A program made the position numbers and the translations under genes. A stretch of 64,000 nucleotides of DNA from an uncultured Treponemataceae bacterium (GTDB taxonomy: Bacteria; Spirochaetota; Spirochaetia; Treponematales; UBA12059). The stretch is taken from NCBI GenBank assembly GCA_964482955.1, contig CAYZZW010000006.1:2585-66584 (forward strand), written 5' to 3'. Of this stretch, positions 1-6,836 are shown piece after piece (positions within the stretch are counted from its first letter, which is position 1; the number at the start of each line of letters is the position of its first letter). Under the pieces are notes generated by a model that saw nothing but the letters and a program-made list of their open reading frames with translations, did no database searches and had not been told where the DNA came from.

Positions 1-503
1 CGCTCGATCAGGGATCGGGAAGCGGGACCATGGGCGGGCGATCGCGCGCTTGCGGAGCCGGACGATCGTAACTCGCGCGATAAGGACGGCTCGGAGACGT
101 CGTCCTTGAAGAGCGGTTCGGCGGAACCGGCGGGGAGGACGGCGGGACGCGCATCGGAGAACCCGATCGAGCACGCGATCGGTCGATCCATGGATGATCG
201 CGCGTCCGGCGCGCCGCGAACGGGCGCTACGGCGACAACGGCCGGAGCGCCGATCGGCGAGCCGACGGGTTCATCGGCCGGGTCACGGACCGTCGTCGCG
301 GGACGCCAGGGAAAAAGGCCGGTGTCATAGAGGCTTTCCAGCAGCCGATGGGCAGCTTCGGGAGAGCCCGGGATGTACCAAATCCGCTTTTCGGGATTCC
401 AGGCAAAACCCGGAACTTTTTTCAACGCCGCGATGAGAACGGGCTCTTTTGGAATGCGAACGGCGAAACAGCCGCTCTCCTCCGCACTGATCGATACGTC
501 CAT
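1..503 (-). CDS. hypothetical protein, 5' part only (continues beyond window start); small N-terminal domain then Pro/Ala/Ser-rich linker; possibly recombinase-associated N-terminal domain
   Basis: ATG at 503 on minus strand. I checked all 167 in-frame triplets down to position 3 and found no stop. It is absent from the track because it has no stop inside the window. N-terminus MDVSISAEESGCFAVRIPKEPVLIAALKKVPGFAWNPEKRIWYIPGSPEAAHRLLESLYD. The recombinase idea rests only on my recollection of a K-x-VPG-x-x-W-x-x-E-x-K-x-W type N-terminal module. Confidence 0.4.
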   Translation of the reverse strand, partial: MDVSISAEESGCFAVRIPKEPVLIAALKKVPGFAWNPEKRIWYIPGSPEAAHRLLESLYDTGLFPWRPATTVRDPADEPVGSPIGAPAVVAVAPVRGAPDARSSMDRPIACSIGFSDARPAVLPAGSAEPLFKDDVSEPSLSRELRSSGSASARSPAHGPASRSLIE

Positions 504-847
504 GAGTCCCCCGGCGGGCGGCGGCCTTCCAGCCAAGCCCACATGAGGGTAACGACAGCGAGAGGCGGTGCCGCAGGGGATTCTGGACGTTTTTTTGCCA
601 GGGCGAGTCGATTTATCGATCGCGGGGGAGGAGGAAGGGCGCCGGACAGCGTACGATGGCGGGAAACCGGAATCCGAAAACTGGAGGTTTTTGGGATTTC
701 CGCACCGTATGCGAAATCTGGCGCGATTTTCATCCGGGACGCCGCCGAAACAGGCTGTCCCGAACCCATGTCAGTGGGCGGTATCCTAGTATGACACCGC
801 GTTTTTGTCCATGTTTTACGGTACTTTTCGCGGTTTCGGCCGTCGAT

Positions 848-1016
848 CTTCGCGTGAGCGATCGAAGCGAGTAGACCGGAGCCGCGCGGTCCGCGGTTGA
901 CTTCGCTGGGACGGGGCGGGAAAGCCGCAGTGGTCGTAAATTCCCGCGGCGAGAACCGCTCGCGGAGAGCGCGACCCCGCGCCGGGCGCGGGGGCACGCC
1001 CTTCCCCCGTATCGGC
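848..1016. repeat. R1: diverged direct copy (~75-80% identity by eye) of the 168-nt segment immediately upstream of ettA (R2)
   Basis: Collinear alignment with 2338-2505. The first ~40 nt are near identical (cttcgcgtgagcgatcgRagcgagYagaccggagccgcg). The middle is diverged. The last ~70 nt are near identical (cgcggcgagRacYgctcgcggagagcgcgaccccgcgcc..gggcgcgggggcacgccc). Contains the palindrome ccccgcgcc-g-ggcgcgggg. Confidence 0.85.
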
Positions 1017-1025
1017 TTATCCGAG

Positions 1026-1061
1026 ATGTCGTGCGTGGCGAAGACGGTGGTCGGCACGAAG
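1026..1061 (+). pseudogene. decayed fragment matching ettA codons 14-24 (MSCVAKTVVGTK vs MDRVTKRHGTK)
   Basis: Directly follows R1 just as the ettA CDS follows R2. ATG-N6-GTG-(A/G)CG-AAG has identical spacing in both copies. An exact 9-mer ggcacgaag (1053-1061 vs 2590-2598) is displaced by one codon. About 50 nt carrying the promoter and codons 1-13 are missing. Confidence 0.4.
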
Positions 1062-1098
1062 TTTATCAATGCGAAGGCCAAGGCGACGAGAGCCGAAG

Positions 1099-2244
1099 TC
1101 ACGCAGTTTCGTAGACCCAATCCGGCTTGAAGCCCTGGCTTTCGGCGATGATCCCGAGCGACAGCATGGTCGCCTCGTAGGCACGCAGGAGAGTACCCCG
1201 ATCAAGCAGAGCCTCCTCGTGTTCAATACGGAGATCGGACAACCAAGGCTCGACATCGGTCAGCCATTTTTCGTACGAGACGGTGGCGCGCATCGTTTTC
1301 AAGGCTTGGTACTGCAACTCGACCATCGGCTCAAGGTATTCCGTCGAAGGCAGGCGATCCGATTTCGCGGAATTGACCGCCTTCGATACCGGCACCAGGT
1401 TCCACAAGCGGTCGTGCGCGACGAAACTCCACGGCAAGTAATGATCGAGGCTGAAAGTATCGGCGGTCAGCGGCGCGCCCGAGTAAATGCACCTGGCCGC
1501 TCCACCCAGCTTCGGCAACGCCTTCCGCCACCATCTCGTCTGCGCGCCGAGCGCGTCGCGAACGAGGGGCGGCTCGATTTTTTCGATGATGCCGGGGATG
1601 CTCGGGTTGCGTGACTGCAGATACTCGGCCAGACTGAAATGCGTCCAGCCCTTAACGATAGCCAGATTCCGTCCAAGATATTCGATCCAATCATGATGAA
1701 GAACGATGCCCGAACGATCGTCGGTGAAACAGTAAAGCGGATTCCGGGTCAGGAACAGTTCGTCCGCCAAGCGGGCGACGGTCGCGTTGACGCGATGGTC
1801 CGGGAGGCCGCGCGTCTCCTTTTCGAAAAACGGCCGAATCAACCTGAACGGGACGAATCGCAACAGGGATTCCGTATCGGAGTTCCCTTCGCAGATCGTC
1901 CGGAGCCGGCGCCATTCCTTTTGTCCCGCGACGATATACGCCCCCCGGATATCCCCCCACTCGACCGCGTCGATCGCATCCTGCAGCTTGTCCCTGCTTC
2001 CGAGGGAAAGCCGGCAAAAGCCGTGCGGATACCCCCCGGCGAGCATCATGTCGACGGCCAGGTCTTTCAGCGGAACGGGACGATCGAGGGCGTCGGCGCC
2101 ATCGAGGGCCGAACGCCCGATCCGCCCGAGCAGCGCGAGGAAAAAGAAGAATTTGTAGCTGGTAGCGCGATCGTCCAGAAGCCGAGCCAGGATTCCGACA
2201 TCGACGCGGGAAGAATCCGGCAAGGCAACGGTGTTACCGAGCAT
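1099..2244 (-). CDS. HNH (His-Me finger) endonuclease family protein with uncharacterised ~260-aa N-terminal region
   Basis: 381-aa ORF. HNH core LDHYLPWSFVAHDRLWNLVPVSKAVNSAKSD (D-H...N...N-x-x-K, the same pattern as McrA/Cas9-type HNH). GAGGAG Shine-Dalgarno 6 nt before the ATG at 2244. Confidence 0.85.
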   Translation of the reverse strand: MLGNTVALPDSSRVDVGILARLLDDRATSYKFFFFLALLGRIGRSALDGADALDRPVPLKDLAVDMMLAGGYPHGFCRLSLGSRDKLQDAIDAVEWGDIRGAYIVAGQKEWRRLRTICEGNSDTESLLRFVPFRLIRPFFEKETRGLPDHRVNATVARLADELFLTRNPLYCFTDDRSGIVLHHDWIEYLGRNLAIVKGWTHFSLAEYLQSRNPSIPGIIEKIEPPLVRDALGAQTRWWRKALPKLGGAARCIYSGAPLTADTFSLDHYLPWSFVAHDRLWNLVPVSKAVNSAKSDRLPSTEYLEPMVELQYQALKTMRATVSYEKWLTDVEPWLSDLRIEHEEALLDRGTLLRAYEATMLSLGIIAESQGFKPDWVYETA

Positions 2245-2526: not shown

Positions 2527-4209
2527 ATGGCAACCACTTTCGACGACAAGAAGATCATCTACACGATGGACCGGGTGACGAAGCGGCACGGCACGAAGGT
2601 CGTGCTCAAGGACATCCGGATTTCCTACTACTACGGCGCCAAGATCGGCGTCATCGGCTTGAACGGCTCGGGCAAGTCGAGCCTGTTGCGCATTTTGGCG
2701 GGGCAGGACACGGAGATCCTCGGCGAGACGAGCCTGGCGCCGGGCTACACGATCGGCTTCCTCGAGCAGGAGCCGCACTTGACGGCCGGCAAGACGGTCA
2801 AGGAGATCGTGAGCGAGGGCGTGCAGGAGATCGTGGACCTGCTCGCGGAGTTCGACGCGATCAACGAGGCGTTCGGCGACCCGGACGCGGACTTCGACAA
2901 GCTGGCGGAGCGCCAGGCGAAGGTGCAGGAAAAGCTCGAGGCGGTGGACGCCTGGAACCTGGATACGAAGCTGGACCTGGCGATGGACGCCCTGCGCTGC
3001 CCGCCCGCGGACAAGGTGGTGGACGTGCTCTCGGGAGGCGAACGCCGCCGCGTGGCGCTCTGCCGCCTCCTGCTCCAGAAGCCGGACATTCTGCTCCTCG
3101 ACGAGCCGACGAACCACCTGGACGCGGAGACGGTGGCGTGGCTCGAGCGGCACCTCCGCGAGTACGCGGGCACGGTGATCGCCGTCACGCACGACCGCTA
3201 CTTCCTCGACAACGTGGCGGGGTGGATCCTCGAGCTGGACCGCGGCGAGGGCATCCCCTGGAAGGGGAACTACTCGAGCTGGCTGGACCAGAAGAAGAAA
3301 CAGCTCGAAATGGAAGAAAAGGGCGAGTCGGACCGGGCGAAGACCCTGCAGCGCGAGCTCGAGTGGATCGGCATGAGCCCGAAGGGGCGGCACGCCAAGT
3401 CGAAGGCTCGTATAGAACGCTACGAAAAGCTGCTGGCCGAGGACGGCAAGGAAAAGCTGCGCGAGGCGAAGATCGTGCTGCCGGCCGGGCCGCGCCTCGG
3501 GTCGGTGGTCATCGAGGCGAAGGGCTTGTCGAAGTCGTACGACGACCGCATCCTCTTCGACAACATGAGCTTCGAAGTGCCGCCGGGAGCGGTGGTGGGC
3601 ATCATCGGCCCGAACGGCGCCGGCAAGACGACGCTCCTCAAGCTCATCACGGGGCAGGAAAAGCCGGACGCCGGCACGATACGCCTGGGCGAGACGGTGA
3701 AGCTGGCGTACGCGGACCAGATGCGCTCGCACCTCGATTCCGAAAAGACGGTGTGGGAGCAGCTCTCCGGCGGGCTCGACATCGTGAAGCTGGGCGCGCG
3801 CGAAGTGAACTCGCGGGCGTTCTGCTCGTGGTTCAATTTCTCCGGCGGCGACCAGCAGAAGAAGGTGGGCGTGCTCTCGGGCGGCGAGCGGAACCGGCTC
3901 AACATGGCGATGATGGTGCAGGAGTGCGCGAACGTGCTGCTCCTTGACGAGCCGACGAACGACCTGGACGTGAACACGATGCGGGCGCTGGAAGAGGCGC
4001 TCGACAACTTCGCGGGCTGCGCGCTCGTCGTGAGCCACGACCGCTGGTTCCTGGACCGCGTGTGCACGCACATCCTCGCGTTCGAGGGCGACAGCGCGGC
4101 GATCTGGTACGACGGCAACTTCACGGAGTTCGCCGAGTGGCGGCGCGAACAGCTCGGCGCCGAAGCCGACCGTCCGCATAGGTTGGTGTACCGGAAACTG
4201 GAACGGTAG
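2527..4209 (+). CDS. ettA: energy-dependent translational throttle protein EttA (ABC-F ATPase)
   Basis: 560 aa from MATTFDDKKIIYTMDRVTK. Two ABC cassettes (GLNGSGKSS / GPNGAGKTT, LSGGERRR / LSGGERNR, LLLDEPTN x2). Length and N-terminal IYTM-x-RV-x-K motif typical of EttA. The longer track ORF from 1639 is an upstream read-through artefact. Confidence 0.93.
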   Translation: MATTFDDKKIIYTMDRVTKRHGTKVVLKDIRISYYYGAKIGVIGLNGSGKSSLLRILAGQDTEILGETSLAPGYTIGFLEQEPHLTAGKTVKEIVSEGVQEIVDLLAEFDAINEAFGDPDADFDKLAERQAKVQEKLEAVDAWNLDTKLDLAMDALRCPPADKVVDVLSGGERRRVALCRLLLQKPDILLLDEPTNHLDAETVAWLERHLREYAGTVIAVTHDRYFLDNVAGWILELDRGEGIPWKGNYSSWLDQKKKQLEMEEKGESDRAKTLQRELEWIGMSPKGRHAKSKARIERYEKLLAEDGKEKLREAKIVLPAGPRLGSVVIEAKGLSKSYDDRILFDNMSFEVPPGAVVGIIGPNGAGKTTLLKLITGQEKPDAGTIRLGETVKLAYADQMRSHLDSEKTVWEQLSGGLDIVKLGAREVNSRAFCSWFNFSGGDQQKKVGVLSGGERNRLNMAMMVQECANVLLLDEPTNDLDVNTMRALEEALDNFAGCALVVSHDRWFLDRVCTHILAFEGDSAAIWYDGNFTEFAEWRREQLGAEADRPHRLVYRKLER

Positions 4210-4211
4210 CA

Positions 4212-4319
4212 ATGCGGACGGTCCGGGGTGGCGGCGAGTTCGGTCACGAACTCGCCGGCCGCGGCCGAGCGCAGCGAGGAGCGCGGCACCGGTTGGTATA
4301 CAGAAAACACGAACGGTAA
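4212..4319 (+). pseudogene. 35-codon remnant/mini-ORF duplicating the EttA C-terminus (MRTVRGGGEFGHELAGRGRAQRGARHRLVYRKHER*)
   Basis: Last 10 codons HRLVYRKHER* vs ettA HRLVYRKLER*. There are 8 nt differences in 33 nt, all synonymous (5 in sense codons, 1 in the stop) except the 2 in one codon. Different reading frame from ettA. Starts 2 nt after the ettA stop. Confidence 0.5.
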
Positions 4320-4352
4320 GCGACGGAAGTTTCAGCTACGGTTTCATAGATG

Positions 4353-4386
4353 ACCGCCCGGAACGGGATTCCGGGCGGTTTTTTTA
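4353..4386 (+). terminator. rho-independent terminator downstream of ettA
   Basis: Stem accgcccgg / ccgggcggt (4353-4361 / 4371-4379), 9-nt loop, then a T run (4379-4385). Confidence 0.8.
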
Positions 4387-4511: not shown

Positions 4512-6836
4512 ATGAAACTCGGTACCAAGATCAGTCTCGCGGTGCTGGCGGCGGGGCTCGTGCCGCTCGCCGTGATCGGCGGCGTCATCGGGTCGAGCGC
4601 TGCGGCGGAAGCCACGCGCAACGCCGAGCTGCGCGCGATGTCGGAGACCGCCACGACGGCGGCGAAGCTCACGACCTTCTTCGACGCCCGGCTGGCCGCG
4701 GTCACGTACGCGGCGGGCACGAAAGCGGCGCGCGACTTCGACTGGCCGGCCTTCGAAACCGGAGCCCGGAGCGTCGTCGGAAGCGGCCGCTTCTTCGAAA
4801 AGCTGCTCCTCGTGAACGCGGACGGCACGTACTGGGCGACGAACGCGGGGAATCCGGCGAAGCGCGGCCTCGTGACGAAGGACGACAAGAACCCGGACGC
4901 GGCGCCGAACTCCCTGTCGGAACGCCAGTATTTCAAGGATCTCGTGTCGTTCAACAAGACCGGCGCCACCGACATCGTGGCGGATCCGGCCATCTCGCTC
5001 TCGAACGGCGCGCGGCAGATCGTCGTCGGCGCGGCGATCGTCGAGAATTCCTACCCGGTCGGCATGGTCGGCGGTTCGGTGGTCCTCGAAACCCTGGAAA
5101 CCGATTTCGCGGCGATTTCGAAAGAGGTGCAGACGAACCTCGGCGCGGCGGCGTACTTCTTCCTGCTCAGCCCCGCGGGCGACTTCGTGTACCATCCGGA
5201 CCCCGAACGCAATCTCCGGCTCGGCGAGACGGGCGGCAAGAAAGTGGAGCTCCGCGGGAACATCCGCTCGCAGGACGAGGACGAAGCCCTGCGCGACGTC
5301 GGGAGCCAGATCCAGTCGAACGCCTCGGGCTCGGCGACGTTCCTCGATCCGTGGACCAAGAAGGCTTCCACGGTCCACTGGATGCCCGTCGGGTCGACCG
5401 GCTACCGGCTGGCCCTCGTGACGCCCGAGCTGTCGAGCCACGCGTCCGTCTCGGCGACGCTCTGGAAGATCGCCATCGTGACGGTCGCCACCTTCGCGGC
5501 CCTGATCGCGATGGCCGCGGCGCTCGGTCGCGCGATCGGCGTGCCGCTCTCGCGGGCGGCCTCGGCGCTGGCGGACGTGGCGGCGGGCGACGGCGACCTG
5601 ACTCGATCGCTGCCGGTGCGCGGACGGGACGAAGTGGCCGCCCTCTCGAAGGCGTTCAACGATTTCGCCGGCGCCATGGCGGCCATCGTCCGGAAGATCC
5701 GGACCGAGGCCGATTCCACCGGACGCGGGACTGAGGAGCTCGAGCGCGGCTCCATCCGGGCGCGGGAAGCGCTCGACAAGATCCTTTCCGTGTCGTCGTC
5801 CATCGAGCGCGAGGCCGACGCGCAGAACGCGAGCGTGCGGAAGGTGGCCGACGCCTTCCACGCGGGCGAAACGGGGATGCGGCGTCTGTCCGACGACATC
5901 GAAACGCAGTCGTCCGGCGTCGTGGAATCGTCCGCGGCCATCCAGGAGATGATCGGGAACATCGCGTCGGTGAGCCGCACGATGAAGCGCCTCGACGAGC
6001 GGATGGGTTCGCTGCTCCAGAGCTCGTCGAGCGGACGCGAGGTCCTCGAGGACGCGGCTCGCTCGATCAAGAACGTGGCGGCCCGCGCGAGCGCGCTCGA
6101 GGAGGCGAACGCGGCCATACGCGGCATCGCCGAGAGCACGAACCTGCTGGCGATGAACGCGGCCATCGAGGCTGCGCACGCGGGCGACGCGGGCCGCGGC
6201 TTTTCCGTGGTGGCCGACGAAGTGCGCAAGCTGGCGGAGACCGCGCAGGAGCAGTCGCGCATCATCGCGCTGGAACTGACCTCGTCCAACGAGTCGGCGA
6301 TCGAGGCCGAGCGCACCTCGCTCCTCGCCGAGGAGTCCTTCGACGCGATCATGGCGGGCATCGCCGACGTGAACCAGCTGCAGGCCGAAATCAACCGCGC
6401 GATGGACGAGCAGGGCGAGGGATCGCGCCAGATCCTCGAAGCCCTGGCGGACGTCAACCAGCGGACGGAAGGCGTGCGGCAGGTGTCTGGCGAGCTCAAG
6501 GCGACGAACGCGGCCATCGAGACGGCCGTCCGCGAGCTGGAATCGTCCAACGCGGGCGTGATGGCGCGGCTCCGCGAGATCGTGGCGGAGATCGACGACG
6601 TCGGCGAGGCGACTTCGGCCATGTTGGGCCGGATCGACGGCACCCGGGCCGCGGCGCGCGCGACCACCGAGCTCCTGGACCGCTTCAAGCTGCCGGAAGA
6701 CGTCCGGGACGCGGAAGCCGGAGACACGTGCGTCGGAGACAAGGAAGCGGGCGGCGCGGCCGACACGCCGGCCGACGACGCGCGGCCGGCGGACGAATCG
6801 ACCGAAGACGGGAACTCCGCCGAATCGGTCCGGTAA
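4512..6836 (+). CDS. methyl-accepting chemotaxis protein (TM, double-Cache-like periplasmic domain, TM, HAMP, MA signalling domain)
   Basis: Starts [24 protein letters not shown] (ATG 4512, GGAG upstream). Signalling hairpin [32 protein letters not shown]. Confidence 0.9.

Follow-up and report, generated by a model that had tools for sequence, protein, structure and literature searches.

Gene end of ettA and a displaced copy of its last codons

We analyzed the 3' end of ettA, the gene for the ABC-F translation factor EttA, in a 64-kb stretch of DNA (the window) from a high-GC spirochete of Rectinemataceae type. The gene is intact, and the closest homologs of its product, with 83 to 91% amino acid identity, are named EttA and come from Rectinemataceae, Spirochaetaceae and Treponema metagenome-assembled genomes. 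Beyond the stop codon, after two hairpins and a short linker and ahead of the transcription terminator, lies a second version of the last ten codons and the stop (Table 1). The working end of the gene, here called copy A, reads cat agg ttg gtg tac cgg aaa ctg gaa cgg tag (4177 to 4209), and the second version, copy B, reads cac cgg ttg gta tac aga aaa cac gaa cgg taa (4287 to 4319). The two agree at 26 of 33 positions in a repeat search and at 25 of 33 when compared across codons. Among the 8 differences in 33 nt, 5 are synonymous, 1 replaces one stop codon with another, and 2 fall in the sole codon with a changed meaning, which specifies Leu in copy A and His in copy B.

The original prediction for this locus, made from the sequence alone, had described copy B as a second set of EttA's last codons that differs mostly by synonymous changes, accompanied by a 12-nt inverted repeat, a second hairpin, a terminator and a 35-codon open reading frame (ORF) that begins with ATG. 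This description and all of its coordinates proved correct, and the accompanying elements were located exactly where they had been placed.

The duplication is peculiar to ettA and is short. Among 192 ORF ends in the window, only that of ettA is followed within 400 nt by a copy of its last 36 nt (27 of 36 positions; runner-up, 24), and a degenerate 18-nt tail core occurs twice in the 64 kb, compared with an expectation of 0.08; no tail copy was found elsewhere in the window. The likeness is limited to approximately 33 to 36 nt. The prediction had also seen Glu-Phe at the same distance from both stops, which is a coincidence: over the 57 nt ahead of each tail, 21 positions agree, compared with 18 +/- 3.3 in shuffled sequences (P = 0.22). 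An upstream extension of the copy was rejected, as it is not significant in the window and relatives share nothing beyond 13 nt, and the impression of a GCGAAGCC or AWRR remnant in relatives failed the same upstream-match test. The linker ahead of copy B (4257 to 4286) displays no similarity to the sequence upstream of ettA or to any relative examined.

The last ten codons and the stop of ettA form the loop of a long hairpin, stem 1. Here gaccgtccgcat (4168 to 4179) is perfectly complementary to atgcggacggtc (4212 to 4223), and the pairing extends imperfectly to 27 nt (4153 to 4179 with 4212 to 4238, 78%). The predicted RNA fold of 4150 to 4262 has an energy of -67.7 kcal/mol (z = -5.9), and 2 of 860 shuffles produced perfect complementarity of 10 nt or more between the ADRPH codons and the first 70 nt beyond the stop. 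Several assignments were considered for the hairpins and rejected. Neither stem 1 nor stem 2 has a T-run, and the stem at 4352 to 4386 alone qualifies as an intrinsic terminator. Stem 1 is not an integron attC site, as RYYYAAC ... GTTRRRY boxes are absent in that order on either strand of 4153 to 4238, and no known RNA family in Rfam was matched at the gathering score.

Table 1. Features at the two ends of ettA, in window coordinates
Feature	Position	Strand	Remarks
Displaced former ettA 5' end	847..1098	+	Upstream region 847-1018, 83% identical to 2337-2507, plus codon remnant
Inserted segment	1099..2583	-	Pfam HNH_4; L166 identity breakpoint at 2583/2584
ettA (ABC-F translation factor EttA), intact, 560 amino acids	2527..4209	+	Pfam ABC_tran (two) and ABC_tran_Xtn
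Stem 1, 5' arm, in codons LGAEADRPH	4153..4179	+	Perfect 12 nt at 4168-4179; repeat search and fold
Working tail (copy A), HRLVYRKLER and TAG	4177..4209	+	Forms the loop of stem 1
Stem 1, 3' arm	4212..4238	+	Perfect 12 nt at 4212-4223; initial ATG complements the His codon CAT
Incidental 35-codon ATG ORF enclosing copy B, judged not to be a gene	4212..4319	+	No Shine-Dalgarno sequence, unconserved, no Pfam match
Stem 2, perfect 10-bp GC-rich hairpin with 4-nt loop	4233..4256	+	ggcgagttcg gtca cgaactcgcc; no T-run
Linker between stem 2 and displaced tail	4257..4286	+	With 4210-4256, the 77-nt non-tail part of the 110-nt block
Putative displaced former ettA end (copy B), HRLVYRKHER and TAA	4287..4319	+	Frame +2 relative to ettA
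Intrinsic terminator, 12-bp stem and T-run	4352..4386	+	Follows copy B and closes the ettA transcription unit; sole stem with a T-run

Extra tails in related spirochetes

We examined 164 ettA loci from genome and metagenome collections, together with contigs of the closest proteins (individual loci carry L numbers below). Among 43 distinct ettA loci of the high-GC Rectinemataceae-like clade, 11 or 12 harbor one or two extra tails downstream of ettA, with a spacing of 91 to 153 nt and in all three frames. In approximately 100 Treponema-type loci no extra tail was found, the best background match being at most 23 of 36 positions. The spacing of the extra tail is 110 nt in the window, 135 nt in L082 and L083, 106 nt in L085 (where the copies are identical), 116 nt in L093, 124 nt in L096, 141 nt in L100 and L101, and 134 nt in L162. 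Two extra copies are found in L088, three tails with a 97-nt period in L089, three tails with a 116-nt period in L095, and a decayed copy in L094.

The tail arrays are physically real. Assembly artefacts were rejected because the k-mers shared by the copies are too short and because two arrays have been assembled independently. The longest k-mer common to both tails of the window is 8 nt, too short for an assembler to have joined them, and L082 and L083, as well as L100 and L101, agree in their arrays although they are independent assemblies from different samples and assemblers.

Hairpins that enclose the stop codon recur with the tails. In 11 of the 43 clade loci, the locus's own ADRPH codons are perfectly complementary over 10 to 16 nt to the 70 nt after the stop, compared with 3% for arms of one locus set against flanks of another and 0.2% for shuffled sequences. 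The 5' arms vary synonymously (GAC CGT CCG, GAT CGC CCG, GAT AGG CCC, GAT CGG CCC and GAC CGC CCG), each with its own matching partner. Extra tails are present in 9 of the 11 loci with a perfect stem, which indicates that stem and duplication go together. A test of complementarity in a fixed register gave no significant result (P = 0.16) because the stems occupy different registers, and the test for the longest perfect complement is the significant one.

Several assemblies are irregular at this position. In L010, a perfect 31-nt tandem duplication of the ettA end (5645 to 5706) removes the stop of the first copy and shifts the frame; considering its length and perfect identity, we take it for a probable artefact of k-mer joining where the assembly broke. 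Contigs end at or inside the ettA tail array in L081 (2090), L083 (3008) and L100 (4879), and the contig of L165 starts at window position 2562, at the 5' recombination breakpoint described below. Such contig ends fit repeats or co-existing alleles that break assemblies.

Extra tails as probable former gene ends

We simulated random substitutions under the assumption that 100%, 80% or 50% of the differences between two tails arose without selection. For the window alone, the probability of a pattern as synonymous as that observed is 0.0005, 0.015 and 0.16, respectively. In nine within-locus comparisons, the tails differ at 3 to 11 positions each, with 0 or 1 codons altered in meaning, and the combined probabilities are 6e-15, 1e-9 and 0.003. 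Two-step switches between Arg codons (CGG/AGA, AGG/CGC) are recurrent among the tails. The original prediction had taken the synonymous pattern as a sign that copy B evolved as a working ettA end, and the simulations uphold this both in the window and in the combined comparisons.

These results contradict a tandem duplication with random decay of the untranslated copy. We therefore give very little credence to the view that copy B is a plain local duplication in neutral decay that owes its synonymous look to luck. The shortness of the region and the small number of differences (8) do leave some room for it, and for the window alone the pattern would be unremarkable (P = 0.16) if half of the differences had arisen in the copy under selection, but the nine comparisons keep a combined P of 0.003 even under that split, and chance would also have to account for the recurrent two-step Arg switches.

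A further trace is seen in L095 and L088, where the 3' arm behind the displaced tails translates to AADRP or ADRP on the complementary strand. The arm codons are gac agg ccg, compared with the synonymous gat cgc cca in the present gene. These retained arms indicate that each displaced tail once had its own matched stem, of which the 5' arm has since been lost. Judged from these sequence comparisons, the extra tails were in all likelihood once real gene ends. Copy B is probably no longer translated and probably without function. Its one sign of decay is the change of Leu to His, a single step from a CTC codon. Decay is also slight among the relatives: K has changed to E in L082, the stop has been lost in L100, 1 nt is missing at the junction in L088, and two amino acids are changed in L094.

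The prediction had gone on to suggest that copy B is the end of an older or foreign ettA allele. An older or foreign end is supported, but the comparison with 49 working tails identified no foreign donor lineage: the nearest tails to copy B are those of L013 (6 differences) and copy A (8), and all others have at least 9. A sequence of 33 nt is too short to identify a donor lineage. As a separate observation, the ettA tail often uses the Arg codons AGG, AGA and CGA.

Proposed duplication and allele exchange at the ettA gene end

We propose, with a probability of approximately 50%, that copy B is a discarded former ettA 3' end that was left behind by a combination of duplication and allele exchange acting across the clade. 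In the first step, the tail would be duplicated locally, head to tail, together with approximately 60 to 110 nt of structured 3' untranslated region (UTR). The long hairpin may promote this by slippage or template switching, and template switching may also keep the arms of the stem perfectly complementary; hairpins can be created and maintained by template switching without selection (PMC8794818, PMC7202029). In the second step, the working end would be exchanged with diverged alleles of related strains by homologous recombination, which would import many synonymous differences at once, and the displaced tail would retain the older version and start to decay. Since an untranslated copy would decay at random, the synonymous differences must have been imported and cannot have accrued in place. 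In the window, a block of 110 bp (4177 to 4286) would thus separate the body of ettA from its old end, with the true terminator coming after the old end. The block would consist of the new last ten codons and stop, the 3' arm of the stem, the second GC hairpin and the linker. Both the role assigned to the hairpin and the order of events in the window are our inference.

Arrays that appear to be young point to local head-to-tail tandem duplication. L085 contains two identical 62-nt copies, units 1 and 2 of L089 form a 97-nt tandem with a single difference, which lies inside the tail, and in L100 the units agree fully for approximately 55 nt outside the tails. A head-to-tail repeat of the whole unit is present in L088 as well. 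The left limit of the displaced copies lies, depending on the locus, 0 to 13 nt ahead of the His codon, where the loop of the hairpin begins on its 5' side, and no similarity was found farther upstream of this limit in any array examined.

Allele exchange at ettA can be seen directly in this population. L166, a Logan contig from a sister sample, is 100% identical to positions 767 to 2583 of the window and then has 28 mismatches in the next 195 nt; from 2584 on it is 14% diverged, and its protein reads TKKFGTKTV where that of the window reads TKRHGTKVV. L093 and L095 have ettA and the array in common and are embedded in unrelated flanks. Among 45 clade loci, the synonymous codon differences of the working tails amount to 1.46 to 1.55 times those predicted by the rest of the gene, the highest value among 30 ten-codon windows.

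A number of observations weigh against this proposal. The flanks of the window are common to no relative, and neither a donor allele nor an empty site was found. A simple tandem duplication is not visible in the window, as the repeat is limited to the 33-nt tail and what follows one stop is unrelated to what follows the other; illegitimate recombination that inserted foreign DNA in one step would explain this locus just as well. The rare Leu codon TTG is present in both copies, which calls for a closely related donor or a later patch of gene conversion. This tail Leu is absent from the 119 closest EttA proteins and occurs elsewhere in one fragment only, as CTT. The one other protein with HRL (P0243/L167) was rejected as a donor, as its codon is CTT and it is unrelated. 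Exact look-ups of EttA and of the downstream chemoreceptor for an independent assembly of the 3' region of the window returned nothing.

The spacers between tails may be something more than neutral relics, as they are better conserved than third codon positions of ettA (84% versus 66% between L100 and L162, and 81.5% versus 68.5% between L093 and L095). In L088, the units at 2623 to 2730 and 2776 to 2883 are 97% identical over 108 nt, and all three of their differences fall at third codon positions of the untranslated tail. Chance would give this with a probability of approximately 8e-4, which suggests that patches were imported and not that single positions mutated. The clustering of the left junctions is too tight for random slippage alone. 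The decayed remnant of the ettA 5' end that lies upstream of the gene (54% identity, with nonsynonymous changes) contrasts with the well-kept copy B, and either the two events differ in age or copy B is being protected. In addition, the displaced and working tails of the same genome have lineage-specific residues in common (L in the window, VT in L093 and YA in L162), which suggests gene conversion between tails, as does the pattern in L088; a conversion event as such was not observed.

An HNH segment at the 5' end of ettA

The window also contains a displaced former start of the gene. An HNH_4 endonuclease gene (1099 to 2244, minus strand) is flanked by diverged duplicates of the region upstream of ettA and its first 19 to 21 or so codons, 847 to 1098 and 2337 to 2590, which are 75% identical over 246 nt (E = 1e-40). 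Within the left duplicate, 1019 to 1098 is a decayed remnant of the first 19 to 24 or so ettA codons (54% identity, z about 5), and an ettA promoter region and the first 19 codons that belong to the insert lie at 2337 to 2583 on the plus strand. The point at which L166 ceases to be identical to the window coincides with the right end of this duplication, and the HNH segment is present on two ettA alleles. The breakpoint at 2583/2584 places the right junction of the segment at codon 19/20 of ettA. From the sequence, the HNH segment is a separate insertion at the 5' end of the gene that brings its own promoter and first 19 codons.

Against NCBIfam and PADLOC, the HNH protein displays a Cas9-like HNH motif only, below the curated cut-offs of NCBIfam. 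Its family has a patchy distribution that takes in spirochetes, many cyanobacteria and clostridia, and some members are fusions with an XRE helix-turn-helix domain; the protein's best relative is only 60% identical. This distribution fits a stand-alone nuclease that moves horizontally. A GC-rich palindrome, GCGCGACCCCGCGCCGGGCGCGGGGGCACGC, is present in both upstream duplicates of ettA (969 to 1002 and 2455 to 2488 of the window) and also in L093 (2203 to 2242), approximately 760 nt upstream of ettA.

The original prediction had regarded the HNH gene and ettA as one imported cassette, with the inverted repeat as its right junction, and had singled out the 35-codon ORF as a possible translated feature. 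We consider this the least probable of the explanations weighed here. It draws on the diverged ettA 5' duplicates that flank the HNH gene and on an ATG placed 2 nt after the ettA stop. The right boundary of the HNH segment, however, lies at 2583/2584 and not at the inverted repeat. A tblastn search of the 164 ettA loci with the HNH protein gave no match, and relatives with extra tails have no HNH homolog within 3 to 4 kb.

The ORF at 4212 to 4319 was rejected both as a small protein and as a translationally coupled gene. Its ATG is the complement of the His codon CAT in the stem arm and is not preceded by a Shine-Dalgarno sequence, and the ORF has no Pfam match. Neither start codon nor frame is conserved: in 6 of 12 extra tails no in-frame ATG, GTG or TTG occurs between the upstream stop and the tail, the extra tails occupy frames 0, 1 and 2 relative to ettA, and in L096 a stop codon stands five codons ahead of His. 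For annotation, this ORF and similar ones should not be entered as genes, and assemblies tend to break or to be joined incorrectly at these positions.

Possible mobile or functional units

As an alternative, a site-specific mobile unit that inserts before the last ten ettA codons and provides a replacement tail of its own may have left the 110-bp block, either as a scar or in miniature form. Such a unit would parallel the HNH segment, with its replacement promoter and 5' end, as well as the islands that restore trmE, dusA or prfC. In all arrays the left junctions lie within 0 to 13 nt of the His codon, the first unit nearly always has a 3' arm that matches the coding arm, extra tails accompany 9 of the 11 perfect stems, and the spacers are more conserved than synonymous sites. 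The gene-end-replacing insertion at the 5' end of ettA is clear and occurs on two ettA alleles, and an integron integrase gene lies approximately 340 nt beyond the displaced 5' end. We nevertheless judge a mobile unit unlikely. Neither recombinase nor transposase nor cargo is found between any pair of tails, whose spacers measure approximately 60 to 120 nt; the 77 nt between the copies of the window (4210 to 4286) contain no ORF except the incidental one. The junctions vary by up to 13 nt, and spacer types track ettA lineages without crossing. The rest of the 64-kb window is free of tail copies, as noted above, and viral contigs, searched with a degenerate tail pattern for a prophage attP, yielded nothing. 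No intI or HNH homolog was found near other arrays, and attC-type R boxes are absent.

The same conservation of spacers could instead reflect function, with the units of tail and hairpin serving as a structured 3'-UTR element of ettA (in stability, termination or regulation) or as silent spare ends for gene conversion. We regard this as quite improbable. The strong fold (z = -5.2 to -5.9) and compensatory changes in hairpin 2 between units 1 and 2 of L095 speak in its favor, and the excess of differences at synonymous tail positions, among young units and working tails alike, and the lineage-specific residues shared by displaced and working tails point in the same direction. Against these stand the three-quarters of clade loci that lack extra tails, the many that lack the stem, unit sequences that are wholly different between sublineages, and several displaced tails that already carry disabling changes. 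Moreover, recognition of RNA or DNA does not give conservation with a three-base period, and no Rfam family is matched.

In the particular form of spare ends, the extra tails would be silent donors that hold the ten residues in other synonymous codons, and conversion would rewrite the nucleotides of the ettA terminus and leave the protein unchanged. One purpose could be escape from a sequence-specific nuclease or an RNA-directed attack on a conserved site. This would explain why coding capacity is kept in untranslated copies, why the limits of the copies are sharp, why spacers are conserved, and why synonymous differences are in excess (1.46 times expectation; 3 of 3 differences between the L088 units); we consider it very unlikely all the same. 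Mobile units and functional spare ends are both rated below the proposal that the extra tails are relics of former gene ends. The latter is preferred because most clade loci have no units, the sequences of the units track host lineages, and several tails are damaged.

Relation to known systems

The closest known kind of feature is the displaced gene end of target-restoring islands, and the HNH segment at the 5' end fits this kind better than the 3' block does. Islands that restore the end of their target gene include SGI1 at the 3' end of trmE (PMC8409611) and dusA-specific islands (PMC4482086). In these islands, as at the ettA 3' end, the target gene remains intact and a slightly different second gene end with mostly synonymous differences lies beyond the insert; the synonymous bias arises because each version has at some time been a real gene end. 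SXT integrates in prfC in the same manner. The 3' block is unlike them in that only 77 nt of hairpin DNA lie between the copies, without integrase or cargo, in that the junctions vary by up to 13 nt, and in that units stand in tandem arrays of up to three.

Each of the other systems considered accounts for part of the observations. Hairpin slippage and template switching (PMC7202029, PMC8794818) agree with the long imperfect palindrome, with arms that track synonymous changes of the coding arm and with young tandem units, but alone they give no synonymous-only differences, and allele exchange would be needed besides. A conserved gene that serves as an anchor beside nonhomologous flanks and a joint at GC-rich microhomology (..CCG|CAY) are likewise expected of homology-facilitated illegitimate recombination. 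That process, which de Vries and Wackernagel and Prudhomme et al. reportedly described in 2002 for the uptake of related DNA, usually deletes recipient DNA and leaves no short duplicate, however, and it does not predict recurrence at one spot.

The silent donor cassettes for segmental gene conversion, such as vls of Borrelia, the tprK donor sites of Treponema pallidum and pilS of Neisseria, are likewise promoterless partial copies beside an expressed gene; they share short patches with it in a mosaic fashion, as the ettA tails may also do. In the ettA tails, unlike those cassettes, every copy encodes the same peptide save for single changes of decay, and variation is at the nucleotide level only. 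The variable and template repeats of diversity-generating retroelements resemble the locus in that a gene 3' end is repeated nearby and a hairpin follows the gene end. They were rejected for lack of adenine specificity (adenines account for 5 of the 8 mismatches in the window and for 2 of the 9 in L082), and the end of the EttA protein is nearly invariant in the 119 closest relatives, the Leu being unique to the window.

A literature search for ettA as an integration site returned nothing relevant, and no description of stacked former ettA ends was found. A discarded gene end is typically encountered as one scar on the distal side of a large integrated island. Here, former ends of a core translation-factor gene are stacked behind it in short tandem series, and genes of mobile elements are absent from the intervals. 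This arrangement is found repeatedly across a spirochete clade, in association with a long hairpin around the stop codon. If our explanation is true, the stacks would be a readable record of how frequently a core gene is swapped between related strains and a natural example of hairpin-driven duplication at a gene end. If the units should instead be mobile or functional, they would represent a new kind of very small gene-end-replacing element or of 3'-UTR module.

Integron integrase neighborhood

The left edge of the window cuts a gene for a 482-amino-acid tyrosine recombinase (window 1 to 503, minus strand; L165 2060 to 3508), which scores 421 bits against the NCBIfam model TIGR02249, integron integrase (cut-off, 265). 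In L165, the DNA past the integrase stop is AT-rich and contains a low-GC ORF as well as boxes that resemble those of attC (ACCTAAC ... GTTAGGT). These sequences identify a putative chromosomal integron with its cassettes on the 3' side of intI. The integrons of Treponema likewise have their cassettes on the 3' side of intI. A survey from 2013 found integrons in no spirochete clade except Treponema (PMC3607928). Homologs of integron integrase lie 1.5 to 2.7 kb downstream of ettA in Treponema parvum ATCC 700773 (L053, 8428 to 8759) and in Treponema sp. MAG049 (L059, 7204 to 8388), which implies that the neighborhood of ettA and an integron recurs in spirochetes, with differing orientations.

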